Assembly: GCA_023136205.1 (NCBI GenBank)
Contig: JAGLRQ010000090.1
Location: forward strand, 1 to 10,836
Direction: 5' to 3'
Length of the DNA: 10,836 nt
DNA from: Candidatus Auribacterota bacterium
GTDB lineage: Bacteria > Auribacterota > UBA6266
The position numbers and the translations under genes are program-made. Below are positions 1 to 10,836 of this stretch, piece by piece. Under the pieces are notes generated by a model that was not told where the DNA came from, did not search any database, and was given only the letters and a program-made list of their open reading frames with translations. Position 1 is the stretch's first letter; the number at the start of each line of letters is the position of its first letter.

Positions 1-1408
1 TGGCAGCATCACACCACTGGAGATCATCTATAAAAAGTGTCAAAGGATTTTCTTCTCCAGCCAGACAGGTTAAAAATTTACTAAAAAAGCTGTTAAAGCG
101 GTTTTTTGATTCTACCGGCGGCAGCTGCTTGATTTCCGGCTGAGGCCCAATTAATATCTCCAGTTCCGGAATAACATCTGTTATTACTTTCCCGTTAGTT
201 CCGACAGCTTCGAGTATTTTCTGTTTCCAGGCTTTAACCCTTTCATCACTTTCTGTCAAAAATGTCCTGATTAAGTTCCGTAAACTCTGGATCAAGGCAC
301 TGTAAGGAATATTCTTCTGGTAAAGATCGAATTTCCCTGAAGTAAAATATCCCTTGTGTTCCACAATTGGTTTCTGAAGTTCTTGAATCAGGCGGGTCTT
401 ACCAATACCGGGAAGCCCGGAAATAAACGAAGTGCGGAAAGAACCATTAGCTGCTTGACTACATTCATTCAAAATTGTCTTTGTCTCATCATCACGCCCA
501 ACCATTTTTGAAACAAAGGTAACTCTATGGGTATAGTCATACCTGCCCAAAGGAAACTCTGAGACACCCTCTCCGGCTGAATATTCATTACTGCATTGCG
601 AAATATCAGCAAGCAGTCCGGCTCCGCTCTGGTAACGTTTTTCAGGCTGTTTAAGAATCAGCATGGCAACCATCTTACTAACCATTCCGGGAATTTCATG
701 ATTTAATTTACTAACCTCTACGGCCTCTTCCGCCAGATGAAAATGTATTAGTTCCAGAGGATCGAGAGAAAAAAAGGGAAGTTTCCCGGTTAACAATTCA
801 TAAAAAACAATCCCCAAAGAATAGAGGTCGGAAGAAAAACCGACTCTGTGATTTATGCGCCCGGTCTGTTCCGGAGAGGTATATGCCAAAGTCCCCTCAA
901 CAAAAGAATGCTCGTAGATAAAATGGCTTACTTCCCTAACATCAAGGCTGGTTATAAAATCAATTAAACGAATAGTAAGACTTTCAGGATGAATCAATAT
1001 ATTGTGAGGCTTAACGCCCCCATGAATAATTCCGGCTTCGTGAACTTGATGCAGTGCCCGCGCTAATAAAGAACTAATAGTAAAAAAATTATCAAGAGAA
1101 ATTTTCGTTTGGCCGGCGGCCCATTCATTTAGAGGAATACCTTCAAAATAGTCCCTGGCAATAAACTGGATATTTCCTTTTTCCTCAAAAAACAAAGGGG
1201 TTATAAGCAAAGGATTATTTAAAATTTTCAGCTGTTCGACTTTTTGCTGGAAATGCAGTTTTTGATGTTCAGAAAGATATCCTGCTTTTAAAACTTTTAC
1301 AACCAAAGGTTTCTTGGGATGTTTGTTATGAAATGCTTTATAGACAACTGCCTGGGGACTCTCACCAAGCTTTTGGATAACTTGATAATTAGTTAGTTCC
1401 TCAAGCAT
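1..1408 (-). CDS. Ser/Thr protein-kinase-like domain fused to an AAA_16/STAND-type P-loop ATPase. Only the N-terminal ~469 aa are present; the C-terminus runs off the left edge.
   Basis: This ORF is absent from the track because it is open at the window edge. I translated the minus strand by hand from the ATG at 1408. A GGAGGAGG RBS sits at 1416-1423, 7 nt upstream. The reading frame stays open to position 1. Translation: MLEELTNYQVIQKLGESPQAVVYKAFHNKHPKKPLVVKVLK...AGIIHGGVKPHNILI...IRLIDFITS...GTLAYTSPEQTGR...FISGLPGIGKTRLIQELQKP...GKFDLYQKNIPYSALIQSLRNLI...NPLTLFIDDLQWCDAA. This gives a kinase fold (VAIK-like K, SPEQ) followed by Walker A (GLPGIGKT) and Walker B (LFIDDLQW). That arrangement is typical of the large kinase/AAA/GAF/HK-type multidomain sensors. 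Confidence 0.85.
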   Translation of the reverse strand, partial: MLEELTNYQVIQKLGESPQAVVYKAFHNKHPKKPLVVKVLKAGYLSEHQKLHFQQKVEQLKILNNPLLITPLFFEEKGNIQFIARDYFEGIPLNEWAAGQTKISLDNFFTISSLLARALHQVHEAGIIHGGVKPHNILIHPESLTIRLIDFITSLDVREVSHFIYEHSFVEGTLAYTSPEQTGRINHRVGFSSDLYSLGIVFYELLTGKLPFFSLDPLELIHFHLAEEAVEVSKLNHEIPGMVSKMVAMLILKQPEKRYQSGAGLLADISQCSNEYSAGEGVSEFPLGRYDYTHRVTFVSKMVGRDDETKTILNECSQAANGSFRTSFISGLPGIGKTRLIQELQKPIVEHKGYFTSGKFDLYQKNIPYSALIQSLRNLIRTFLTESDERVKAWKQKILEAVGTNGKVITDVIPELEILIGPQPEIKQLPPVESKNRFNSFFSKFLTCLAGEENPLTLFIDDLQWCDAA

Positions 1409-1488
1409 ATTCGTTCCTCCTCCCCCGCGAAACACTTAACGCATCATAACATAAAACCATACAAAAAGAAACACATAGAACCTGACAC

Positions 1489-2841
1489 CTAACTGTTATA
1501 AACAAAAACCTGATTCCTACCCCCTCTCTTAGCGCTATAAAGAGCTTTATCCGCTAAGGCAATCAAGCCTTCCGCGTCTTCGGCATCGTCAGGAGATGAA
1601 GCAACTCCAATACTTATAGTAAGGTCCATTTTCCCCTGCTGGACTAAAAAATCATGTTTCATCATTCTTCTTCTCATACGTTCGGCTGTTTTATAAGCGC
1701 TATCCTTGGAAGTATCAGGAAGCGCGACACAAAATTCCTCCCCCCCATAACGCCCAAGGAGGTCCCCCTGCCTTGCCCTGTCCTTCAAGACAGACGCCAG
1801 TTCCTTCAGTAAAATGTCTCCTACGAGATGCCCATATGTATCGTTGTATCTCTTGAAATGGTCTATGTCAACCATAAGAAAAGAAAGAGGAAGCCCTGTT
1901 TTTTTAGTTCTTAGCAATTCTGAATCTAATCTTTTCATAAAATATCTTCTCAGGTAAAGCCCTGTAAGCCCATCTATAATCGAAAGCTCTTTTATCTTTT
2001 CATAAAGGGATGCCTTTCTTATCTCCAAGCTGGCATCAGCAATAAGAATTTTTACATTATTAAGGGCTTCAAACTCCACATCCCTGAATAAAAGGCCGCC
2101 AAGGACATCTCTTTTATCCACAATAGGAATTGCAATAAGGTTTTTTCCACCTACAATCTCTTCGGGTTCACCGCTCTTAAATGTTCCTTCAGCATCCTCA
2201 TATACTACATCTTTTTGCTTTTTCATAACATCAAGGATACGTTTTTCGTTCTCTTCAAGCTGTTTATCTGCCGCGTTTCCGCTCTTAAGGTCTATTAATT
2301 CAGGGCCGTCCGAATCTTTCATATCTTTATATATAATCATCTTACCGGAGCTAAAATCCGCTATATTTCCTATTGTTCGCGCGCACTCGGTAAAAGTCTG
2401 TTTGCTATCCAGGGTGGAGCTCATAGCTATTAAGCCTGTATAAAGCTTTTTAACTTTATTAACTTCCTCTCTTTTCTTTTCATTTTCAAATTTTTTTACC
2501 CTATAATCAGCTGACATTGCTTCGTACTTTTCACGCGCCTCTCTGTAATCAGAAAAATTAGTTTTTGCCTTCAGCAAATACTTATTCTTATAAAAATACA
2601 GGATAACAATAAGCATTATAAAATAACACATTGTAAGGCCTATAAACCACGGAGCCTCTGTATAAAATACCTCATCATCAAACATCTTGAACATTAAGAA
2701 TATAATCACATGAGAGGAAGCTATGAACGTAATAAGAGATGCCCACCGGAAGCTGTAGAACAACCCTATAGCCATTATTAAAACAGTATAAAAAGGTATT
2801 GCAAAAAACAGATTCAGGCTTAAAGATATTTCCTGATTCAT
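1489..2841 (-). CDS. Membrane-bound diguanylate cyclase (N-terminal TM helices, coiled coil, GAF-like region, GGDEF domain with a GGEEF active site and an RxxD I-site).
   Basis: The track ORF is 1489..2868, but its first codon is TTG. The in-frame ATG at 2841 (MNQEISLSL...) is preceded by GGAG with 5-nt spacing, so I prefer 2841. GGDEF hallmarks are DGLTGLYLRRYF, MVDIDHFKRYNDTYGHLVGD and RYGGEEFCVALP. RQGD lies exactly 5 residues upstream of GGEEF, the canonical inhibitory I-site position. Hydrophobic N-terminal segments are present (LFFAIPFYTVLIMAIGLFY, LITFIASSHVIIFLMF, WFIGLTMCYFIMLIVILYF). Confidence 0.9.
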   Translation of the reverse strand: MNQEISLSLNLFFAIPFYTVLIMAIGLFYSFRWASLITFIASSHVIIFLMFKMFDDEVFYTEAPWFIGLTMCYFIMLIVILYFYKNKYLLKAKTNFSDYREAREKYEAMSADYRVKKFENEKKREEVNKVKKLYTGLIAMSSTLDSKQTFTECARTIGNIADFSSGKMIIYKDMKDSDGPELIDLKSGNAADKQLEENEKRILDVMKKQKDVVYEDAEGTFKSGEPEEIVGGKNLIAIPIVDKRDVLGGLLFRDVEFEALNNVKILIADASLEIRKASLYEKIKELSIIDGLTGLYLRRYFMKRLDSELLRTKKTGLPLSFLMVDIDHFKRYNDTYGHLVGDILLKELASVLKDRARQGDLLGRYGGEEFCVALPDTSKDSAYKTAERMRRRMMKHDFLVQQGKMDLTISIGVASSPDDAEDAEGLIALADKALYSAKRGGRNQVFVYNS

Positions 2842-2934
2842 CTTATCTCCGTATTTCTTATCTGGCAAAAAACAGTATCTCGTCCCCTCCGGGGAGGCTA
2901 CGCTACGCTCCGCACCATCTCGTAGAAAAAGATA

Positions 2935-2955
2935 GTAAAAAACACAGTTTTTTAC
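2935..2955. repeat. Perfect 9-bp inverted repeat GTAAAAAAC-N3-GTTTTTTAC in the spacer between the two diguanylate cyclase genes. It may be a weak intrinsic terminator on the minus strand or a protein-binding palindrome.
   Basis: Read directly at 2935-2943 and 2947-2955. On the minus strand the hairpin is followed by TATCTTTTTCT (2934 down to 2924). The stem is AU-rich, so its stability is low. The existence of the repeat is certain; its function is not. Confidence 0.55.
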
Positions 2956-2996
2956 CCGTGTTAATCTGCGGCCCTTTTTACTTTATTCTTCTTTCA

Positions 2997-4442
2997 TCAC
3001 TGCTTACTTTTGTACAAAATCGACCTGTTTTTCCCCATATCCTTTGCCTTGTAAAGGCTGTCATCTGCCGCTTTAATAAGGCCCTCAGAAGTTTTTAACG
3101 AAGGCGTGTTCTCCGCGACACCCGCGCTGACGGTAACCTTTATGTTTTCCTCTCTTATTAATTCTTCAGAGGACGCAATCGTCCGGCAAATATTTGATAT
3201 GAGCTCCTGTGAGGTTTCACCATCAGAGCCCGGTAAAACTACGGAAAACTCTTCCCCTCCATACCTTGCAACCAATCCCTTAGTGCCTATTAATCTTTGC
3301 AGTTGGGAAGACACATTTTTAAGAATAATGTCTCCCACAATATGTCCATGCTTATCATTAAACAGTTTAAAGTCGTCTATATCCAGCATAATAAGCGAAA
3401 GCGGAACTTTTTTCGTATAGCAATCATCTATAATTTCAGGAAGTTTCGCCCTGAAAAAACCCGCCGTATATAATCCCGTTAATCCATCTCTTATAGCCAG
3501 TTGGGTAGTCGTTTCATAAAGATGGGAGTTATAAAAAGCAAGAGCAGAGAGGTTCGCGATAATAGCCAGAATCCTCAAATCATCAACTGAATAGATATCC
3601 GGGTCTTCATTGCTTATTTTTAATATTCCCATAATCCTGTTACCGGTTATAAGCGGCGAAGCAATAAGGCTCCTTGCGGCACTCTCATATTTCCTCCCGA
3701 ATCTAAAATCCCGATGAAGATCAGCAATGTGAACTGACTGGCGGCTCCTAAATACCCATTGGTTTAACTTATCTTCTTCTAAATAAGTAAACTCTGCCGT
3801 TTTTGCCCTGTGGACATTCATACCACGGAGCTCAAGACGTTTCATATCTTCTCCAAGTAAATATAATTGATACATACCAGGTTTCTGGATAATCTGTATT
3901 GTATTCTTGGTAACTTTTTTAATCAGTTCTTCGTTGTTCAGCGACACACCGATATCTTTTGAAATTTCCCTCAGCTTGGATATTCTTAAAATTTTTCTAT
4001 CAAGAGATTCTTCTAAAACTTTCTCTCTGTTAAATTCTTCAATAAGTGTATTTGTTGACTCATTAATATCATCCGTTTTCATTTTTACCGCGTACTCTTC
4101 AACATGCTCCTTATTCCAGAACTTACACAATAGCCCCCCTATAAATATAAATGCTATTCCGTTAGCCAGAAAGCTCCAATCATGAAATACAAACAACGTA
4201 AACACCGCGACAAGAAAAGCTATTCCTAAAAAGATGCCTCCGACAATATTACCCATAAATAACCATGCGGCACAAATAATAAGCATATAAAAAACCACGG
4301 CAAAATACGCATAGTAATAGTATCCGGCTTTTGTAACTTCGGGGTTATTAAAATAAGCTACTGAAATTGAAAATACAATATAGGTAAGGGCCAGCGCGGA
4401 AATTACAGCAACAACTTTCAAATATCTCTCTTTTAATGCCAC
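2997..4442 (-). CDS. Membrane-bound diguanylate cyclase (multi-TM N-terminus, coiled coil, GAF domain, GGDEF domain with GGEEF, no RxxD I-site).
   Basis: 481-aa ORF with a GTG start at 4442, preceded by GGAGG with 7-nt spacing. GGDEF hallmarks are RDGLTGLYTAGFF, MLDIDDFKLFNDKHGHIVGD and RYGGEEFSVVLP. The I-site position reads GTKG, not RxxD. The N-terminal ~110 aa are strongly hydrophobic (about 4 TM segments). The central region (LYLLGED...IASPLITGNRIMGILKISNEDP) looks GAF-like. The architecture matches the downstream paralog at 1489..2841. Confidence 0.9.
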   Translation of the reverse strand: MALKERYLKVVAVISALALTYIVFSISVAYFNNPEVTKAGYYYYAYFAVVFYMLIICAAWLFMGNIVGGIFLGIAFLVAVFTLFVFHDWSFLANGIAFIFIGGLLCKFWNKEHVEEYAVKMKTDDINESTNTLIEEFNREKVLEESLDRKILRISKLREISKDIGVSLNNEELIKKVTKNTIQIIQKPGMYQLYLLGEDMKRLELRGMNVHRAKTAEFTYLEEDKLNQWVFRSRQSVHIADLHRDFRFGRKYESAARSLIASPLITGNRIMGILKISNEDPDIYSVDDLRILAIIANLSALAFYNSHLYETTTQLAIRDGLTGLYTAGFFRAKLPEIIDDCYTKKVPLSLIMLDIDDFKLFNDKHGHIVGDIILKNVSSQLQRLIGTKGLVARYGGEEFSVVLPGSDGETSQELISNICRTIASSEELIREENIKVTVSAGVAENTPSLKTSEGLIKAADDSLYKAKDMGKNRSILYKSKQ

Positions 4443-4457
4443 CAGCCTTCCTCCATT

Positions 4458-4488
4458 AAAAAAAAGCGAGTGTATTTAATCCACTCGC
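4458..4488 (-). terminator. Rho-independent terminator downstream of the ABC ATPase gene.
   Basis: The minus strand reads GCGAGTG-GATTAAATA-CACTCGC followed by TTTTTTTT. The stem is at 4482-4488/4466-4472 and the U-tract at 4458-4465. It has 7 perfect base pairs, a 9-nt loop and an 8-U tail, and lies 32 nt after the TAA stop at 4520. Confidence 0.85.
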
Positions 4489-4519
4489 GCATATCATTTT
4501 CTTTTAGGATTTTTTGATA

Positions 4520-5623
4520 TTATACAATTGTGTTCTCTGTATCAATATCAAAAAAATGGGCGCCATTCATGTTTAACACAAGTTCCAAATCCTGATTAAC
4601 CTCAGCTTTTTCGTGTGAATTAACCCTTGCTATAAATGGATTTGTTCCGGTATTAAGATAGAGATATACTTCCGAACCCATAGGCTCAATCACCTCAACG
4701 GTAGCGGTAATCGTAGCCTCAGGATCCGCACTTCCCATAAAAAGCTTATCAAATATGTCTTCCGGCCTTATCCCGAAAGTAATCTTTTTACCGGCATAAC
4801 CTGCCAGTTTTGGTGTCATATCATTCACTATTCTCACCTTAAAATTACCCTCATCAAAATAAAGGCCGCCTTTTTCAGCAATAATTGTTCCCGTCATAAA
4901 ATTCATTGGCGGGCTCCCAATAAATCCCGCGACAAATTTGTTCTGCGGATGTTCGTAAAGAGTAATGGGATCCGCTACCTGTTGGATAAAACCGTCTTTC
5001 ATTACTACTATGCGGTTACCCATAGTCATAGCTTCCACCTGGTCATGAGTAACATATATCATTGTAGACTGAAGCCTTGTATGAAGTTTTGAAATTTCAG
5101 TCCTCATCTGAATTCTTAACTTAGCATCCAGATTTGACAGGGGTTCATCGAAAAGGAATGCTTTCGGTTTTCTGACTATCGCGCGGCCTACAGCAACTCT
5201 CTGCCGCTGTCCGCCGGAAAGGGCCCTGGGTTTCCTGTCAAGCAAGGTATTTATGCCAAGAATTTCCGATGCTTCCCGTACCCTCTTCTCTATTTCATCC
5301 TTCGAATACTTTCTAAGCTTTAGCCCGAATGCCATGTTCTTATATACTGTCATATGAGGATAGAGAGCATAGTTTTGAAAAACCATCGCTATATTTCTAT
5401 CCTTGGGGGGAATATTATTAACAATCTGGTTATCAATAGTAATTGAACCCGAGGTAATATCTTCAAGCCCCGCTATCATTCTTAACGTAGTGGATTTCCC
5501 ACATCCGGAAGGCCCGACAAGCACTAAAAAGTCCTTATCAGCAATTTCCAGGTTAGCTTCTTGAACAGCAACTACGTTGCCGGGATAAACTTTTTTTACA
5601 TTTTTAATGACAACCCTTGCCAT
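4520..5623 (-). CDS. ABC transporter ATP-binding protein, carbohydrate-importer type (MalK/UgpC/MsmX family), with a C-terminal regulatory (TOBE-like) domain.
   Basis: 367-aa ORF with an ATG at 5623 preceded by AGGAGG. Motifs present: Walker A GPSGCGKST, Q-loop VFQNYALYPH, signature LSGGQRQR, Walker B AFLFDEPLSNLD, H-loop IYVTHD. The family-typical FIGSPPMNF precedes the C-terminal beta-rich domain. No permease or solute-binding gene is adjacent in this window. Confidence 0.93.
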   Translation of the reverse strand: MARVVIKNVKKVYPGNVVAVQEANLEIADKDFLVLVGPSGCGKSTTLRMIAGLEDITSGSITIDNQIVNNIPPKDRNIAMVFQNYALYPHMTVYKNMAFGLKLRKYSKDEIEKRVREASEILGINTLLDRKPRALSGGQRQRVAVGRAIVRKPKAFLFDEPLSNLDAKLRIQMRTEISKLHTRLQSTMIYVTHDQVEAMTMGNRIVVMKDGFIQQVADPITLYEHPQNKFVAGFIGSPPMNFMTGTIIAEKGGLYFDEGNFKVRIVNDMTPKLAGYAGKKITFGIRPEDIFDKLFMGSADPEATITATVEVIEPMGSEVYLYLNTGTNPFIARVNSHEKAEVNQDLELVLNMNGAHFFDIDTENTIV

Positions 5624-5689
5624 CAGGTTCCTCCTTTAATAAATACAGCGGGCAGACACATTGCCCTTTTACTTCTATCGTCAACACGG

Positions 5690-5742
5690 ATTATAGCACC
5701 TGCAAAACTGAAATGGTAGCACTATTTCTCGCGGATTGTCAA
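5690..5742 (-). promoter_or_regulatory. Candidate sigma70-type promoter(s) for the ABC ATPase gene.
   Basis: The minus strand carries TTGACA (5737-5742), an 18-nt spacer and TACCAT (5713-5718). Downstream there is an extended -10, TGcTATAAT (TATAAT at 5690-5695, TG at 5697-5698), with a poor -35. Motif match only; there is no experimental support. Confidence 0.3.
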
Positions 5743-5861
5743 AGCAATACCGTTTGTACTGCTTGTATATTGTATTTAGTATCCGGTACATAAGGAATTA
5801 AGCTTTTATGTATATCCCCCCGCCATAAATGGCAAGGCTTTCTAACGGAGTAAAAAACCAC

Positions 5862-6797
5862 TTATCTGATCCCTACAGTTTCATCTACAGTACAGCGGCT
5901 GGTTTCCGCGGCCTGCCATTCCTTATATGCTTCTTTCAAATATTTCTTCTGAGTACTGGTGGTGGGAGACTTTTTTGATTTTATATAAAAGTCCAGGGCA
6001 TGGAAATACGCTTTAAGGCAAACATAATATCCCCTGCTTAATTTCTTGCTTATCTGCAACAGCTTATTCCCTAAAACTTCCACATCTTTTATGTTTTTGA
6101 AAGGAGGATTTTCGGGATTATCCCAAACAAGCTCATCCAGTAACTTTGCAAGATATTCGCTGCTTTCCCGCGGAGAAAGCTGTTTCTGGGATCTTTCAAT
6201 TTCTCTAATTCTATCTGCCTTTAACTCTGCTTTTCTTTTAATCATTTCAGCCATTCTATTTCTTCTTTCTTCCCTGGCCATCCACCGGCCTTTATATTTA
6301 ACCAAACCTCTGTTTTTTTGCTGCTCTTCAAATCTTTTCACCAGCTCAGTTTTTTTCTGAAACAATATTTCAAGATTCTTTTTATTTTTCTCAGACATCG
6401 GAATTATTTCATTGATTTTCTCCTGCCTAAACTTCAAAAGGCCGGAACCGGACAAAAATTTCACGTCTTCACCAGTTTCCTCAAGAATTCTGCCGTCAAA
6501 CTCAATACCGTTTTTCATAACAATTTTATCCCGCGCAATACTTTCAGAAATCTCCTTTATCTTTGTAAGAATCAAACGATATTCCGTTGTGGTTATTTCA
6601 CCCTCCGGAATTTCTACCAGCAAATTCTTTTTCTCTGTTTCTTCTTTGATTCCTGTCTTTTCTTTTTCTGCCGGTTTTCTCTCAGGACCCTGCCCCGCCG
6701 CTGACTCTCCGCAAATAGACAACCAACACATAAATACAATACAAAGCAAAAACCCAAATTTTAAGCTGATTTTTTTGTTTCCAGACACAATAAACAT
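5862..6797 (-). CDS. Hypothetical secreted or lipid-anchored protein, K/E-rich with predicted coiled-coil segments.
   Basis: 311-aa ORF. The N-terminus KKISLKFGFLLCIVFMCWLSICGESAAG looks like a signal peptide with a non-canonical lipobox-like LSIC. The rest is highly charged (EKEKTGIKEETEKK, RRNRMAEMIKRKAELKADRIREIERSQ). I recognise no catalytic motif. The start is uncertain: the ATG at 6797 has AAGG directly abutting it, and the GTG three codons in has better spacing. Confidence 0.65.
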   Translation of the reverse strand: MFIVSGNKKISLKFGFLLCIVFMCWLSICGESAAGQGPERKPAEKEKTGIKEETEKKNLLVEIPEGEITTTEYRLILTKIKEISESIARDKIVMKNGIEFDGRILEETGEDVKFLSGSGLLKFRQEKINEIIPMSEKNKKNLEILFQKKTELVKRFEEQQKNRGLVKYKGRWMAREERRNRMAEMIKRKAELKADRIREIERSQKQLSPRESSEYLAKLLDELVWDNPENPPFKNIKDVEVLGNKLLQISKKLSRGYYVCLKAYFHALDFYIKSKKSPTTSTQKKYLKEAYKEWQAAETSRCTVDETVGIR

Positions 6798-6964
6798 CCT
6801 TGGTTATATGGATTATTTAATTCATTTATCTTCTACCACAAATTGGGCGTTTTTGCCATAACTTTCACCCAAAATTCGCGTTAGAAAACAATACTTATCA
6901 AAACACTCTGTAAATATCGCCCTTAGCTAAAAAGTAATGTGACAAAGAAAGGCCGAATGTATAA

Positions 6965-7468
6965 TTACTCCTGGCCTACATACTGGGGAAGTTCGATAAA
7001 ATCCACTGATTTCAAATGCGCGGAATTACATTGAGGACATCGGATTTCCGCACAGAAATTCGCTGTCCTCAAATCCATGGGATCAATTATTTCTCCGGAA
7101 AGAGTCATTATCTTCCATTTCTCTGTATGCTTTCTTTTGTTATAAGAGAGTATTATCTTATAGCCTTCAAACTCTGTTCCGCATTCCAAACACTTGAAGA
7201 ATGCCGTTATATAAAACGCCTTCTTTTTACACTTTGGACATTCTCTGGGAGATGTATTAAAGTCGTCCTCCATCAGAAACTGACACAATTTGCATTCCCA
7301 TATCACAGGCGCTTTAAGTTTTTTCCTTTCCAATAGAACAGGTTTTGCCATCGAGAAAAGAATTGCCAGGCTAACAATCATTATGGCGGTAAGCACCGAC
7401 AAAGGATTAACTTTCTGCTTATTCGTTTTTTGTTTCCGCTTATCTTGCGACTGGGATAATGTTGTCAT
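6965..7468 (-). CDS. Small single-pass membrane protein with two predicted zinc-ribbon modules (four CxxC knuckles).
   Basis: The track ORF is 6965..7525, but it starts on GTG deep inside the upstream gene. I prefer the ATG at 7468 (MTTLSQSQDKRKQKTNKQK...), which overlaps the pseudopilin stop (7440) by 29 nt. No convincing RBS precedes any candidate start, so the start is uncertain. Features are a basic N-terminus, the TM helix LSVLTAIMIVSLAILFSMA, then CKLC-x14-CPKC and CLEC-x42-C-x4-CPQC. Confidence 0.6.
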   Translation of the reverse strand: MTTLSQSQDKRKQKTNKQKVNPLSVLTAIMIVSLAILFSMAKPVLLERKKLKAPVIWECKLCQFLMEDDFNTSPRECPKCKKKAFYITAFFKCLECGTEFEGYKIILSYNKRKHTEKWKIMTLSGEIIDPMDLRTANFCAEIRCPQCNSAHLKSVDFIELPQYVGQE

Positions 7469-8135
7469 CGTTAATGTCAGGTTTCCATTCAACATGAAAA
7501 TCAGCAAATAGATGGTTCGCGCCACCGTTGTGCCGGCGTTCTATTATATTCTCGTAAAAATCAGGGTTGGATTTCCATGCCCCCTGATGAACTACCTCTG
7601 TTTCAGCATCAAAGAGAACTACTATCTCAGAAGGATGGGCAAGGTCATAATAAGCAACCTCTTCTGTATACAGCATCAGATTATACGAATAAGAGATCTC
7701 TACCTTAAACGGCTCATTTGGCGGCGGGTTATCAGCATCCACATTTATGATCATAGGGGTCTTGTCTGAAGGACACACATACAAATCTTCATCTGACAGA
7801 CTGGGAATCAACGTAGCACCCATAGGTTTTGGAACTACAAGAATAACCCATTTGCCGGCTTTTCCGGGGGTAAACGTATATAAATAAGGAGGCCAGGCTC
7901 CATCATGTTCCGTTACGTACATCCCAAAGCCGTATCCAAGCTGTTTTAGATTATTCATGCAAACAGCTCGATTTGCCTTTTCCCTCGCGCCCCGAAAAGA
8001 AGGAATTAGAAATGACGCCAATATAATAATAATTGAGATTGCCACAAGCATCTCAACCAGAGTAAAACCACGCCTCGCGTTACGCGACATGGATAACAAA
8101 TAATAAGTAAAGTTTTTATTTTTGGCTTTTCGCAT
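7440..8135 (-). CDS. Prepilin-type N-terminal cleavage/methylation domain protein of the H-X9-DG pseudopilin family (here H-X9-DF).
   Basis: 231-aa ORF. The class III signal ...NARRG|FTLVEMLVAISIIIILASFLIPS carries the G-F-T-L-x-E motif and a hydrophobic helix. The C-terminal RHNGGANHLFADFHVEW matches the H-x9-D[G] signature of the large PVC-type paralog family (TIGR04294/DUF1559-like). A shorter start at the ATG at 8090 (MSRNARRGFTLVEM) would give a typical 8-residue leader and may be the true start. Confidence 0.9.
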   Translation of the reverse strand: MRKAKNKNFTYYLLSMSRNARRGFTLVEMLVAISIIIILASFLIPSFRGAREKANRAVCMNNLKQLGYGFGMYVTEHDGAWPPYLYTFTPGKAGKWVILVVPKPMGATLIPSLSDEDLYVCPSDKTPMIINVDADNPPPNEPFKVEISYSYNLMLYTEEVAYYDLAHPSEIVVLFDAETEVVHQGAWKSNPDFYENIIERRHNGGANHLFADFHVEWKPDINDDNIIPVAR

Positions 8136-8215
8136 ATGCTGTTAACAAAAACTTCCCGGGGTTCTCCTGTATCTGTTTTTTTCAATACAAACAGGGGCAA
8201 ATGTATTTCCCGATT

Positions 8216-8749
8216 CTATTTTTCACAGGGAAACAGCCTTTTCAGTTCAGCCAATTTTTTCAGCGTCTTCTTTTTATTAAATTCCGCGTCCAGCATTATC
8301 TTCTCAAGCTCATCCACTCCGGACTTGACCTCGTATAAATGCCTAAGCATCTTATTAAAAGACTCTCCTATTTCAGGAACAGCATCATCATCTCTGAACT
8401 GTATTTTATCGGGAAGGTTTCCTTCAGACATCTGATCAAGATACATCTCTATCCTGAAAAGGGCCCCGGCAACCCTGTGGGAAATCATAATGCTCAGAAG
8501 AAAACAAACCAAACACGCCACAATAGCGGGAGCAATAAGATACTTGATTAAGGTAAGATTAAGGCCTTCTATCGATTCACTGGATATTACACCCTCATCC
8601 TGAGCTGTCGTTATGAGGTAATTTATACACGTGTTGTAAACTATAAGCGCGGTAACGAGCATCGATACAATTACAATCCACATCACAAATATGGAGTATT
8701 TGTACTGAAAGCTCTTTAAAAAATAATTTTTAAATTTGCGCTTTTGCAT
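8216..8749 (-). CDS. Stand-alone HAMP-domain membrane protein (two TM helices, a short external loop, HAMP, and a short coiled-coil tail with no output domain).
   Basis: The track ORF 8216..8842 begins at a TTG and would read through the riboswitch and its terminator, so I reject that extension. The ATG at 8749 gives MQKRKFKNYFLKSFQYKYSIFVMWIVIVSMLVTALIVY (TM1). After about 25 aa comes LIAPAIVACLVCFLLSIMI (TM2). The HAMP-like region is SHRVAGALFRIEMYLDQMSEGNLPDKIQFRDDDAVPEIGESFNKMLRHL. Confidence 0.8.
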   Translation of the reverse strand: MQKRKFKNYFLKSFQYKYSIFVMWIVIVSMLVTALIVYNTCINYLITTAQDEGVISSESIEGLNLTLIKYLIAPAIVACLVCFLLSIMISHRVAGALFRIEMYLDQMSEGNLPDKIQFRDDDAVPEIGESFNKMLRHLYEVKSGVDELEKIMLDAEFNKKKTLKKLAELKRLFPCEK

Positions 8750-8776
8750 GTTGTTCCGGATTATACCATATAACTC

Positions 8777-8810
8777 AAAAATTAACCCATTCTTTCCCCG
8801 GAAGAATGGG
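8777..8810 (-). terminator. Intrinsic terminator forming the expression platform of the c-di-GMP-I riboswitch.
   Basis: The minus strand reads CCCATTCTT-CCGGGGA-AAGAATGGG followed by TTAATTTTT. It is a perfect 9-bp stem (8802-8810 with 8786-8794), a 7-nt loop and a U-rich tail at 8777-8785. It lies between the aptamer and the ATG at 8749. Confidence 0.8.
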
Positions 8811-8824
8811 CACGCCCAGACGCC

Positions 8825-8910
8825 ACCCCAGCAACCAGACAACCCTATCTTCCCAGACTTAGGCTCCCGGCTTTGCGTCCTACCCTTTCGGAGTAGTTTG
8901 CCTTTTTCCG
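8825..8910 (-). promoter_or_regulatory. c-di-GMP-I (GEMM-I, type 1) riboswitch aptamer.
   Basis: The minus-strand RNA reads AAAAAGGCAAACUACUCCGAAAGGGUAGGACGCAAAGCCGGGAGCCUAAGUCUGGGAAGAUAGGGUUGUCUGGUUGCUGGGG. It shares the GEMM-I signature GGCAAAC...CGAAAG...GGACGCAAAGCC...GCCUAA with the Vibrio cholerae Vc2 aptamer, as I recall that sequence. Hand fold: a basal helix GGCAA/UUGCU; a P1 hairpin CUAC(U)CC-GAAA-GGGUAG with a GNRA tetraloop; and a P2 of CCGGGAGCC/GGUU(G)UCUGG enclosing CCUAAG/UAGGG. That last element is one nucleotide off the 11-nt GAAA tetraloop receptor CCUAAG/UAUGG. P2 is capped by GUCU-GGGA-AGAU. The core spans 8830-8902. Confidence 0.82.
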
Positions 8911-8941
8911 CATTAACTACTTTCTAACTCCCTACACCTGT

Positions 8942-8970
8942 ATTATACCATAGATTACGGTATAATTTAA
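8942..8970 (-). promoter_or_regulatory. Candidate promoter of the riboswitch-led transcript (extended -10 TGgTATAAT).
   Basis: On the minus strand, TATAAT is at 8942-8947 with TG at 8949-8950. A weak -35 TTAAAT lies at 8965-8970 with a 17-nt spacer. The predicted TSS is about 30-35 nt upstream of the aptamer GGCAAAC. Motif match only. Confidence 0.4.
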
Positions 8971-9069
8971 GGGCCCCTACATACTTTTTGTTCTTAGATA
9001 AGCTGCTGCGGTATCGATAGTTAGATTTTTTAAACCAATTATCACAAAGTCGTTAATGTTAAAAAACAT

Positions 9070-10017
9070 TCATTTACCGGTTTTGGGCATTCTGCGTTTT
9101 GGTATAGTAAAACAAAATGTACTCCCCTTTTTTATTTTAGATTCAGCCCAAATCCTGCCGCCATGCAGCTCAACAATTTTTTTGCTGATTGAAAGGCCTA
9201 AACCTGTACCTTTTTCTCCAGGGCCGTGTACTCTGTCAAACTGCTGGAATTTATTGAACAGTTTGGACACGTCACCTCCGGACATACCCACACCCGTATC
9301 CGAAACGGATATCATTACTGAACCATCCGCGTCGTCATCCGCCCTTACCGTTATTTTTCCGTTTACCGGTGTAAACTTAAGGGAATTGCTAACCAGATTT
9401 GTTAATATCTGAATAAGTTTATCACTGTCCGCGTATATGCGGGATACCTTTTTGGATAAACTTGTCTCAAGAACAATCTTTTTTTCTTTTGCTTTTGATT
9501 GAAAATCTTCAACTATTTTTTTAATAAATTTAGCTGTATCAACAGAAGATCTTTTAAGTTCCATCTCTCCGGCTTCCAGTTTAGATATATCCAAAAGACC
9601 ATCAATAATCCTGGTTAAACGAGCAATATTTTCAAGCACTTGAGAAAGAATGCTAACCTGTTTCTCATTAACATCCCCCAATATTCTATCACTAATAAGC
9701 GCGACGCCTTCCTGTATAATGGTAAGAGGCGTGCGTAATTCATGCGACACCGTAGCGACAAAATCTGATTTTAGGTCGTCAAGCCTCTGAAGTTCTCTAT
9801 TTTTAGTTTCCAGCTCTTTATAAAGCAGCTTAATATTCTCGTTGGTTTTTTTTAGGCCCCAGGTTTGTGTTTTCAGCGCATCCTTAACTTTTTTAAGTTC
9901 TGCTTTCAGTTTTTTAACACTGGCCCGCGATTCTTTAAGTTGCGCGATCCGAGTATTTAGAACCTTTATTTCTTCTATAAACTGCTCTCTGGTTTTTCCT
10001 CTGGCAATCACTTTCAA
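9070..10017 (-). CDS. Cytoplasmic sensor histidine kinase (N-terminal coiled coil, HisKA, HATPase_c; no TM segment or recognisable sensor domain).
   Basis: 315-aa ORF. Motifs: H-box FVATVSHELRTPLT, N-box ILTNLVSNSLKFT, G1 VSDTGVGM, G2 GTGLGLSISKKIV. The N-terminal ~75 aa are heptad-rich (IEEIKVLNTRIAQLKESRASVKKLKAELKKVKDALK). The track start at 10017 is TTG directly abutting GGGAG. The GTG at 10011 has 6-nt spacing from that RBS and is the more likely start. Confidence 0.9.
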   Translation of the reverse strand: MKVIARGKTREQFIEEIKVLNTRIAQLKESRASVKKLKAELKKVKDALKTQTWGLKKTNENIKLLYKELETKNRELQRLDDLKSDFVATVSHELRTPLTIIQEGVALISDRILGDVNEKQVSILSQVLENIARLTRIIDGLLDISKLEAGEMELKRSSVDTAKFIKKIVEDFQSKAKEKKIVLETSLSKKVSRIYADSDKLIQILTNLVSNSLKFTPVNGKITVRADDDADGSVMISVSDTGVGMSGGDVSKLFNKFQQFDRVHGPGEKGTGLGLSISKKIVELHGGRIWAESKIKKGSTFCFTIPKRRMPKTGK

Positions 10018-10031
10018 CTCCCTTCTTAATT

Positions 10032-10391
10032 TTATATAAGCCTCTTAATTGCTTCAATCAATGATTTGTAGTCCATAGTCTTTACAGTAAAATCATCCGC
10101 GCCTGATTTTTTGACCTTTAAAGCATCAACAGCATCAACCTTGCTTGTAACCACAATAATTGGTATCTTAATGTTTTTAGTACTTTTTAGAATTCGGCAC
10201 ACCTGGTGGCCATCCATATCCGGAAGCATAATATCTAAAACAATTAAATCCGGCTTATTCTGATATGCCTGTTTTATACCGGAACTTCCATCAATCGCGG
10301 TTATAACATCATACCCCTCATACACAAGCCTGTCTCTCAGTGTGGCTAAAATGTTGGGTTCATCATCAATAATAAGAACCTTCTTTGGCAT
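10032..10391 (-). CDS. Single-domain response regulator (CheY-like receiver only).
   Basis: 119-aa ORF with an ATG at 10391 preceded by GAGGAG. Receiver hallmarks: acidic pair IIDDE, phospho-acceptor LIVLDIMLPDMDG, VVTSK, and the conserved Lys in FTVK. There is no output domain. The stop lies 14-20 nt from the kinase start. Confidence 0.9.
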   Translation of the reverse strand: MPKKVLIIDDEPNILATLRDRLVYEGYDVITAIDGSSGIKQAYQNKPDLIVLDIMLPDMDGHQVCRILKSTKNIKIPIIVVTSKVDAVDALKVKKSGADDFTVKTMDYKSLIEAIKRLI

Positions 10392-10403
10392 TGTTATCTC
10401 CTC

Positions 10404-10836
10404 TCACAAATGTTCAACAACTGTTTCCTGTCTATAAACCTCCGAAGCTTTTTCAATTAATTCTTTCGGCGACATAGCTTCATCCGGATATGCCGCGGCA
10501 CCAAAGGTTATTTTCACGGACTCCGGAATTTTTTTGGCTTTAACCAGATCCAAAAACCTGCTGATAACTGCTTTCGTTAATCTATCCACCAGCATCTTTA
10601 CATCTTCTCTGCCGGCACCGTTCAGGGAAAATGCGATTTTATTTTCTTTATATCTCACTGCCAGATCCGTCCTGCCGCGCAGTATTTTTCCTGCCGCCTC
10701 TTCTAATTCAGATAAAATATCTTCAGTCTTGCCGGCCCCAAACAATTTCTTAATCTCATTAAAATTAAGTATGTCTATTAAAATAAGCAACATGGTAGAT
10801 TGTGTGTCTTTGGCCTTTTGCAGGCTGTCATCCAGG
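10404..10836 (-). CDS. Degenerate (catalytically inactive) GGDEF-domain protein. Only the C-terminal portion is present; the N-terminus runs off the right edge.
   Basis: The track gives 10404..10793 from an internal ATG, but the frame stays open upstream to the window edge (...LDDSLQKAKDTQSTMLLILIDILNF...). It aligns by eye to the GGDEF fold. LLILIDILNFNEIKKLFG corresponds to llliDiDhFKxiNDxyG. AVRYKENKIAFSL corresponds to vaRyGGDEFavll, with GGDEF replaced by KENKI. ITFGAAAYPDEAMSPKELIEKA corresponds to vtvSiGvAxyp...ellxxAD. The I-site position reads GRTD, not RxxD. Confidence 0.7.
   Translation of the reverse strand, partial: LDDSLQKAKDTQSTMLLILIDILNFNEIKKLFGAGKTEDILSELEEAAGKILRGRTDLAVRYKENKIAFSLNGAGREDVKMLVDRLTKAVISRFLDLVKAKKIPESVKITFGAAAYPDEAMSPKELIEKASEVYRQETVVEHL

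Follow-up and report, generated by a model that had tools for sequence, protein, structure and literature searches.

A class I cyclic di-GMP riboswitch, predicted to act as a transcriptional OFF switch, upstream of a pseudopilin operon in Candidatus Auribacterota

A class I cyclic di-GMP (c-di-GMP) riboswitch lies in front of a small operon encoding a HAMP-like membrane protein and a pseudopilin in Candidatus Auribacterota, an uncultivated candidate phylum of the PVC group. It occupies the minus strand of the 10,836-nucleotide (nt) stretch analysed here (GenBank assembly GCA_023136205.1, contig JAGLRQ010000090.1, positions 1 to 10,836; hereafter the window), which is an exact segment of a 55.9-kb ENA contig (L124). 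We consider it probable that this element works as a kinetically controlled transcriptional OFF switch in the operon leader, accompanied by a second promoter that bypasses it. We infer the direction of regulation from the arrangement of its hairpins, and ligand binding from the bases found at the ligand-contacting positions.

The riboswitch itself is an ordinary member of its class, one that routine Rfam annotation would find, and it leaves knowledge of the class unchanged. Its interest lies mainly in the OFF direction predicted for it, in the probable bypass promoter, and in the fact that some closely related strains carry the whole module and others do not. It also adds a well-supported c-di-GMP-I riboswitch to this phylum; an Auribacterota genomics paper makes no mention, within that paper, of riboswitches or c-di-GMP. 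The association of c-di-GMP signalling with a pilin-like operon, whose neighbours include genes for pilus or type II secretion assembly and for several GGDEF proteins, provides a testable regulatory link in organisms known from metagenomes only.

Identity of the aptamer and its predicted ligand

When the whole window was compared with all 4227 Rfam families, RF01051 (c-di-GMP-I) was the only one to exceed its gathering score (35 bits). Its match, at 8912-8827 on the minus strand, scores 66.4 bits (E = 1.4e-11) and spans the complete model, all 87 positions from 1 to 87. Over 8600-9100, no other family was listed at E <= 1, including RF01786, and two weaker matches from the same clan that overlapped RF01051 in a permissive scan of this region were suppressed, RF01051 being the best of its clan. 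The search with RF01051, and with RF01786 as a negative control, had been proposed in an initial annotation of the window made from its sequence alone, and its outcome agrees with that prediction. The aptamer comprises the following elements.

8827-8912, minus strand: c-di-GMP-I (GEMM-I) aptamer, full-length RF01051 match
8902-8896, minus strand: aptamer core GGCAAAC, read from the sequence
8896-8880, minus strand: P1 hairpin (C8896-G8880) with a GAAA loop at 8889-8886 and a single bulged U8892, read from the sequence
8880-8869, minus strand: GGACGCAAAGCC, read from the sequence
8872-8833, minus strand: P2 helix, from the aptamer model
8863-8858 and 8847-8843, minus strand: tetraloop receptor, CCUAAG opposite UAGGG, read from the sequence

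Sequence and alignment together reveal the complete architecture expected for the family, with P1 and P2 joined by AAA and both the GGCAAA and GACGCAAAGCC cores present, and every pair of the window aptamer that could be mapped on the Rfam alignment is canonical. We compared it with a reference panel of 120 natural GEMM-I aptamers retrieved by a length-matched sequence pattern. Among 119 distinct aptamers (118 from the panel plus that of the window), each P1 position displays 4-6 canonical pair types and is canonical in 87-100% of the sequences, a covarying family into which the sequence of the window aptamer fits. The 3' half of its receptor, UAGGG, departs by one base from the UAUGG of the canonical 11-nt motif (CCUAAG/UAUGG); in a crude regular-expression tally of the panel, UAGGG was found in 9 of the 120 aptamers and the canonical UAUGG in 23. 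According to the original description of GEMM RNAs, those with a GAAA loop on P1 usually have a tetraloop receptor in P2 as well, which is often of the 11-nt type. The initial annotation had already recognized GGCAAAC, the GAAA-capped P1, and GGACGCAAAGCC on this strand, as well as the one-base departure of the receptor. Its "type-1" label is borne out as regards the tetraloop and receptor, whereas the names "type 1" and "type 2" do not occur in the paper describing GEMM RNAs.

The numbering of Vc2, the GEMM-I aptamer of Vibrio cholerae, was transferred through the Rfam alignment and agrees with the published positions of A33 and A62, which belong to the GAAA loop and the receptor, respectively, of the C44-G83 pair between the helices, and of G14, beside the C92-ligand pair. 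The equivalents of the contact bases G20, A47, and C92 are G8902, A8874, and C8831, respectively, and those of the inter-helix pair, C8877 and G8840, are also present. In the crystal structures of Vc2, A47 intercalates between the two guanines of the ligand. G20 reads G-alpha and C92 pairs with G-beta of c-di-GMP, and the GEMM-Ib RNAs that sense cyclic GMP-AMP (cGAMP) carry an adenine at position 20, where the window has a guanine (G8902). Judged by these features, the aptamer belongs to the GEMM-I (c-di-GMP-I) RNAs that combine tetraloop and receptor and is not a GEMM-Ib RNA and, because the equivalents of G20 and C92 are G and C, its predicted ligand is c-di-GMP and not cGAMP. It thereby resembles Vc2 in its GGCAAA and GACGCAAAGCC cores, its GAAA loop and P2 receptor, and its equivalents of G20, A47, C92, C44, and G83. 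It differs from Vc2 in its receptor, CCUAAG/UAGGG, which is neither the canonical 11-nt motif nor that of Vc2, in the one-nucleotide bulge of its P1 hairpin, and in that its sequence offers no clear outer closing helix (P1a).

The minimum-free-energy fold of the whole leader misses the aptamer (z-score -1.42, not significant alone), and thermodynamic folding alone would have overlooked the riboswitch. A leader segment, GUAGUU (8916-8921), can pair with AACUAC (8893-8898, minus strand), thereby engaging the 5' strand of the P1 hairpin, and this pairing leads to a non-aptamer fold favoured by the nearest-neighbour model. It might be a folding trap or a piece of the ligand-free state.

Expression platform and direction of the switch

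Two hairpins that share sequence follow or overlap the aptamer.

8776-8811, minus strand: intrinsic terminator, stem 8811-8802/8794-8785 and loop 8801-8795, found by terminator scan
8784-8776, minus strand: U-rich tract UUAAUUUUU, 3' of the terminator stem
8796-8857, minus strand: antiterminator hairpin of 24 pairs, 8857-8830 with 8824-8796

The terminator stem (GCCCAUUCUU/AAGAAUGGGU, 8811-8785) combines nine Watson-Crick pairs and one G.U pair around a 7-nt loop, with a folding energy of -12.3 kcal/mol (z-score -2.7 against shuffles). It does not overlap the aptamer, from whose end it is separated by 15 nt (8827 to 8811). The antiterminator, by contrast, is built from parts of both elements: the 3' half of aptamer P2 and the tail with the C92 equivalent make up its 5' strand (8857-8830), and the linker, together with the terminator's 5' arm and loop, makes up its 3' strand (8824-8796). 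It emerges in folding once the 3' arm of the terminator is withheld, with an energy of -29.7 kcal/mol (z-score -3.78) that none of 200 dinucleotide shuffles equalled. In ensemble folding of ligand-free transcripts of 146-152 nt, from which the 5' arm of the terminator has emerged and the 3' arm has not, the antiterminator has a probability of 0.86-0.87; when the aptamer is locked, the antiterminator falls to 0 and the terminator reaches 0.97.

The predicted direction is OFF because the terminator, being placed outside the aptamer, can form alongside it, and the antiterminator is excluded by the folded aptamer. This is the layout of Cd1, a characterised OFF switch in the flgB leader of Clostridioides difficile. 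There too the terminator can form beside the aptamer, and both are in competition with an antiterminator that uses the aptamer 3' strand, is stable only transiently, and in time gives way to the terminator; the class I c-di-GMP riboswitches of C. difficile have been reported to be mainly OFF switches. In silico, the window shows the same arrangement, with a terminator outside the aptamer and compatible with it, and an antiterminator made of the aptamer 3' strand and the terminator 5' arm, so that a Cd1-like behaviour can be predicted for it. It departs from Cd1 in the genes that it would regulate, HAMP-like and pseudopilin instead of flagellar ones, and in the promoter-like element that follows its terminator. 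It also differs from the GEMM layout in which the terminator overlaps P2 and the ligand raises expression, as well as from Vc2, reported to be insufficient for transcription termination in vitro, whereas the window has a classical terminator.

According to the mechanism that we propose, transcription would begin at the distal extended -10 promoter (8950-8942) or read through from the upstream kinase operon; the terminator scan detected no terminator after the kinase gene. Binding of c-di-GMP would keep the aptamer (8912-8827) folded and leave the 5' arm of the terminator free, which would allow the terminator (8811-8785 plus the U-tract) to form and the transcript to stop near 8777. Without c-di-GMP, the 3' half of P2 and the tail would pair with the linker and the terminator 5' arm (8857-8796), and the polymerase would continue into the HAMP-like/pseudopilin operon. 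The promoter-like element located 3' of the terminator (8773-8760) would provide riboswitch-independent basal expression from a near-leaderless mRNA.

Translational control was considered and rejected, as in the fold of the full leader nothing linked to the aptamer sequesters the weak Shine-Dalgarno-like region and the AUG.

The initial annotation had described a complete transcriptional switch, with a promoter upstream of the aptamer and a perfect 9-bp terminator with a U-tract immediately after it. The promoter elements are there (extended -10 at 8950-8942 and -35-like element at 8970-8965), as are the nine Watson-Crick pairs and the U-tract; the stem has a further G.U pair and starts 16 nt past the aptamer end, not immediately after it. 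Of the switch as a whole, aptamer, promoter, and terminator were correctly identified, and the antiterminator (8857-8796), the direction of regulation, and the promoter-like block at 8773-8760 had been overlooked.

Predicted promoters on both sides of the riboswitch

8942-8970, minus strand: predicted distal promoter, with a -35-like TTAAAT (8970-8965), a 17-nt spacer, and an extended -10 TGGTATAAT (8950-8942)
8760-8773, minus strand: proximal promoter-like block TTATATGGTATAAT, with an extended -10 TGGTATAAT (8768-8760), between the terminator and the ATG

The -35 element of the distal promoter matches 3 of the 6 hexamer positions, hence its absence from the list of a generic promoter scan; its transcripts would start near 8935. 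The sequence TGNTATAAT occurs exactly three times in the window (0.71 expected), always in intergenic regions, on the coding strand, and upstream of genes. The third copy, within TGCTATAAT (5690-5698, minus strand), is found ~65 nt upstream of a downstream gene for a MalK-like ABC ATPase, which carries a strong AGGAGG Shine-Dalgarno sequence. This suggests that promoters of this organism usually take the form TGNTATAAT. The proximal block and the distal promoter (8952-8942) have in common an 11-mer, TATGGTATAAT, best read as a promoter consensus. An origin of both promoters by duplication was rejected, their flanks being similar at chance level (P = 0.56 upstream and 0.97 downstream).

Comparison with related loci (L001-L004) supports a role for the proximal block. 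Its 14 nt, TTATATGGTATAAT, are identical in the window, L002, L003, and L004, with one base changed in L001 (TACAAT), whereas in the adjacent gene the identity between the window and L001-L003 is only 79-84% at fourfold-degenerate sites, and the 10-nt spacer from the block to the ATG is scrambled among relatives. The constraint on the block thus appears focal, as expected for a -10 element travelling with its gene, and we infer that it is a promoter conserved in relatives both with and without the riboswitch. Its transcripts would start at ~8755-8752, with a leader of ~3-6 nt devoid of the riboswitch. Part of the transcription of the first gene therefore probably escapes the riboswitch, which probably governs only the transcripts from the distal promoter and the read-through from the kinase operon.

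A comparable situation is known for V. cholerae tfoY, where four promoters (P1-P4) surround Vc2, those upstream yielding transcripts that contain it, and P3 and P4, located within and just 3' of it, yielding Vc2-independent ones; the downstream promoters are induced by c-di-GMP through VpsR, and short RNAs ending at Vc2 accumulate through control of stability, not termination. As in tfoY, the window has predicted promoters both upstream and downstream of the riboswitch for one gene, the proximal one differing from its tfoY counterparts in that it is deduced from conservation and consensus.

The proximal block is also near-palindromic (TTATA-TGG-TATAA; 8760-8773, minus strand), a symmetry that the TACAAT change of L001 breaks. 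It could be the binding site of a dimeric regulator overlapping the -10 element.

Distribution and variation among close relatives

The 177-amino acid (aa) product of the first gene has only four cluster-level homologs among 5.8 billion proteins, one of them labelled Candidatus Auribacterota. The riboswitch is found in all the loci that encode the identical protein (L124-L127) and in L004 (RF01051, 69.4 bits; protein 99% identical). In L001, L002, and L003, with proteins 87-92% identical, no aptamer, even a degenerate one, was detected at E <= 1. The riboswitch is limited to the closest strains. An alignment of the leaders of five loci locates the boundary: homology begins at a short T-run just upstream of the block TTATATGGTATAAT, and beyond this T-run the window and L004 carry the riboswitch module, L001 and L003 another shared element, and L002 a different small neighbouring gene that abuts the promoter block. 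This presence or absence of the module in loci with proteins 87-99% identical, together with the conserved, probable promoter placed after the terminator, makes the locus a case study of riboswitch gain or loss around an existing promoter.

An exact pattern for the aptamer of this lineage, GGCAAACTACNNNGAAANNNGTAGGACGCAAAGCC, had no match in JGI metagenome contigs or GTDB genome contigs. A broader aptamer pattern retrieved at least 119 stretches, from Bacillota, Proteobacteria, and others, with Auribacterota accounting for 0 of 80 among the matches listed.

The element shared by L001 (~2990-3060) and L003 (~3770-3840) is ~100 nt long, contains inverted-repeat-like segments (GAGACACAAAGCC ... 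GTGCCTTTGTGTGAG), and matches no Rfam family at E <= 1. The locus is also rearranged in other respects among these close relatives, L003 having three extra genes (1287-3661) between the histidine kinase and the HAMP-like gene, and L001 an additional AsmA/DUF748 gene (5963-7111) ahead of the ABC ATPase.

The riboswitch exists in two sequence variants, the window type (L124-L127) and L004. They differ by 8 substitutions, all of them within 71 nt of the switch (8853-8783; 3329-3399 in L004), and by none in the 207 nt of 8854-9060, which include the promoter, leader, aptamer P1, and core; the first gene itself is 98.7% identical. Such clustering could mean that the switch is being tuned rapidly or that a short patch was exchanged by recombination. 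The substitutions within the aptamer (8853, 8841, and 8830) affect positions that are unpaired in it, and those at 8841, 8830, and 8821 convert inner U.G pairs of the antiterminator into Watson-Crick pairs. L004 has a terminator stem of 12 bp (-16.0 kcal/mol) and keeps the antiterminator (-27.1 kcal/mol, compared with -29.7 in the window; z-score -2.7). These changes are compatible with both hairpins being functional, two sequences being no proof.

Weighing the alternatives

Several observations weigh against an OFF switch of this kind. At equilibrium, the full-length leader forms the terminator with a probability of at least 0.95 whether the aptamer is locked or not. Since the terminator wins in both states, any regulation must be kinetic and would depend on the persistence of the antiterminator. 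In the nearest-neighbour model, which leaves ligand and tertiary energies out of account, the aptamer fold of Rfam is less stable than non-aptamer folds by 8-12 kcal/mol. As outer closing helix P1a (Vc2 G14-C93 onward), which is not part of the Rfam model, the best that can be drawn is G8908.U8830 (G-C in L004), and in a crude search of the panel real flanks could not be separated from shuffled ones. In L004, the outer pairs of the antiterminator are broken at 8853 and 8798 and weakened at 8801, and its population in 146-152 nt transcripts is 0.28-0.39; with only two riboswitch variants, covariation in the platform is anecdotal. As for the bypass promoter, its predicted start falls inside or just past a weak Shine-Dalgarno-like GGAA, which is awkward for translation, and other genes of this organism have clear Shine-Dalgarno sequences.

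The preference for the terminator at equilibrium, irrespective of aptamer locking, would also suit a near-constitutive terminator or insulator between the kinase and HAMP/pilin operons, with the proximal promoter driving the operon and c-di-GMP having little effect; the short terminated RNA bearing the aptamer might then be a by-product or have a role of its own. The stronger terminator and weaker antiterminator of L004, the failure to find a terminator after the kinase gene, and the fact that the conserved feature is the proximal promoter block, the riboswitch module being dispensable in three relatives, all point in the same direction. We nevertheless hold this explanation to be unlikely, as a 62-nt antiterminator (z-score -3.78) that spans exactly the P2 3' strand and the terminator 5' arm would be unexpected without switching, and the absence of substitutions in the aptamer core between strain variants, against eight in the platform, fits selection for ligand binding. 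The opposite direction of control has its own appeal, since c-di-GMP commonly promotes surface attachment functions, and an ON switch, in which ligand binding stabilises a long-range helix that blocks the terminator, would let it raise the expression of the pilin-like operon. Two segments of the aptamer 5' flank or leader, CGGAA (8910-8906) and GGGAG (8932-8928), are indeed complementary to the terminator 5' arm (UUCCG, 8803-8799, and CUUCC, 8804-8800, respectively), and the first description of GEMM RNAs proposed ON control for many representatives whose terminator overlaps P2. However, the terminator of the window does not overlap the aptamer and still forms with a probability of 0.97 when the latter is locked, 5-bp long-range helices are no match for a local 10-bp hairpin, and the helix that actually competes with the terminator is the antiterminator, which cannot form while the aptamer is folded, all of which makes an ON switch improbable.

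It is highly improbable that the aptamer recognizes 3',3'-cGAMP or some other dinucleotide instead, in the manner of GEMM-Ib and other GEMM-I variants. The Rfam clan does contain variants with altered specificity, two of its lower-scoring matches overlapped the aptamer, and some natural GEMM-Ib RNAs bind both ligands; yet G at position 20 and C at position 92 are the c-di-GMP configuration, RF01051 is the best match in the clan, and the GGEEF motif is intact in two GGDEF proteins encoded at the locus. In another reading, some strains have recently gained the riboswitch module (or others have repeatedly lost it) in front of an older near-leaderless promoter, with c-di-GMP picking the form of the mRNA instead of simply turning the operon on or off. 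This seems distinctly unlikely to us. If it were true, low c-di-GMP would yield a long-leader mRNA with a Shine-Dalgarno-like sequence, the near-leaderless form being always made, and high c-di-GMP would release a ~160-nt terminated RNA containing the ligand-bound aptamer. A trans-acting role would be conceivable for this RNA, as it is for the small RNAs of V. cholerae that contain Vc2.

The probable regulated operon and its neighbourhood

8216-8749, minus strand: first regulated gene (ATG at 8749), 177-aa protein with two transmembrane (TM) helices and a HAMP-like domain
7440-8135, minus strand: second gene of the likely operon, prepilin-type pseudopilin with an N-terminal methylation motif and DUF1559

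The first gene starts at ATG 8749 and not at TTG 8842, as indicated by the mostly synonymous substitutions that separate the window from L001 in its first 17 codons. The initial annotation rightly dismissed the TTG-extended open reading frame (ORF) as spurious; the 227-bp gap that it reported between the kinase and HAMP genes is the distance to that extended ORF, the true intergenic gap being 320 bp (9069-8750). The 177-aa protein consists of two long hydrophobic helices followed by a HAMP-like segment. The Pfam HAMP model (PF00672) matches right after TM2 over positions 2-51 of 53, with a score below the cut-off (16 bits against a gathering score of 25; E = 0.015), and partial NCBIfam matches correspond to the TM2-HAMP linkers of WalK, MtrB, CtpM, and AdeS (kinases and one chemoreceptor). 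A HAMP-like motif, EGNLPDKI...DAVPEIGESFNKML (PEIGESFNKML), can also be recognized. A single-sequence AlphaFold (AF2) model, of low confidence (predicted local distance difference test, pLDDT, 68; predicted template modelling score, pTM, 0.40), consists of a helix (57-108), a connector, and a second helix (125-172). The "HAMP gene" of the initial annotation therefore finds support in the motif and the NCBIfam matches and falls short of the curated Pfam threshold: the protein resembles a HAMP module, an identity that is plausible.

The pseudopilin has Pfam matches to N_methyl (31.5 bits) and SBP_bac_10/DUF1559 (28.3 bits) and NCBIfam matches to IV_pilin_GFxxxE, above the cut-off, and to pre_pil_HX9DG (the C-terminal H-X9-DG motif; 16.4 bits against 19). 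It is followed by genes for a small zinc-ribbon-like membrane protein and for a 311-aa protein without assigned function, and the operon probably comprises the HAMP-like and pseudopilin genes plus these two unnamed ones. The first of the two corresponds to a GTG-initiated 186-aa ORF (6965-7525, minus strand) that overlaps the pseudopilin gene by 86 nt; in relatives, the product called is 167 aa long, with an overlap of ~29 nt, and the true start is probably later. Its product has one hydrophobic helix and two Cys-X2-Cys pairs in a zinc-ribbon-like arrangement. Further downstream, the MalK-like ABC ATPase gene has its own promoter-like TGCTATAAT.

Upstream, positions 1-5114 of L124 contain same-strand genes for PilM_2, PilO (weak match), a secretin, and a faint T2SSK, a group of genes like those for pili or type II secretion systems that precedes the two-component genes and the riboswitch by a few kb. 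The initial annotation had also mentioned two cyclases and a degenerate GGDEF protein in the locus. The former are the two GGDEF proteins with intact GGEEF motifs, downstream of which is encoded a 1755-aa protein combining Ser/Thr kinase, AAA, GAF, and histidine kinase domains. The latter is the tail of a larger kinase-GGDEF protein cut by the window edge: the 129-aa ORF at 10404-10836 (minus strand), whose frame is open to that edge, is the C-terminal domain of a 542-aa PAS-HisKA-HATPase-GGDEF protein, complete in L004 (150-1778) and L124 (6718-8346). At the position of the GGDEF signature this protein reads YKENKIAF, and its cyclase domain is probably inactive.

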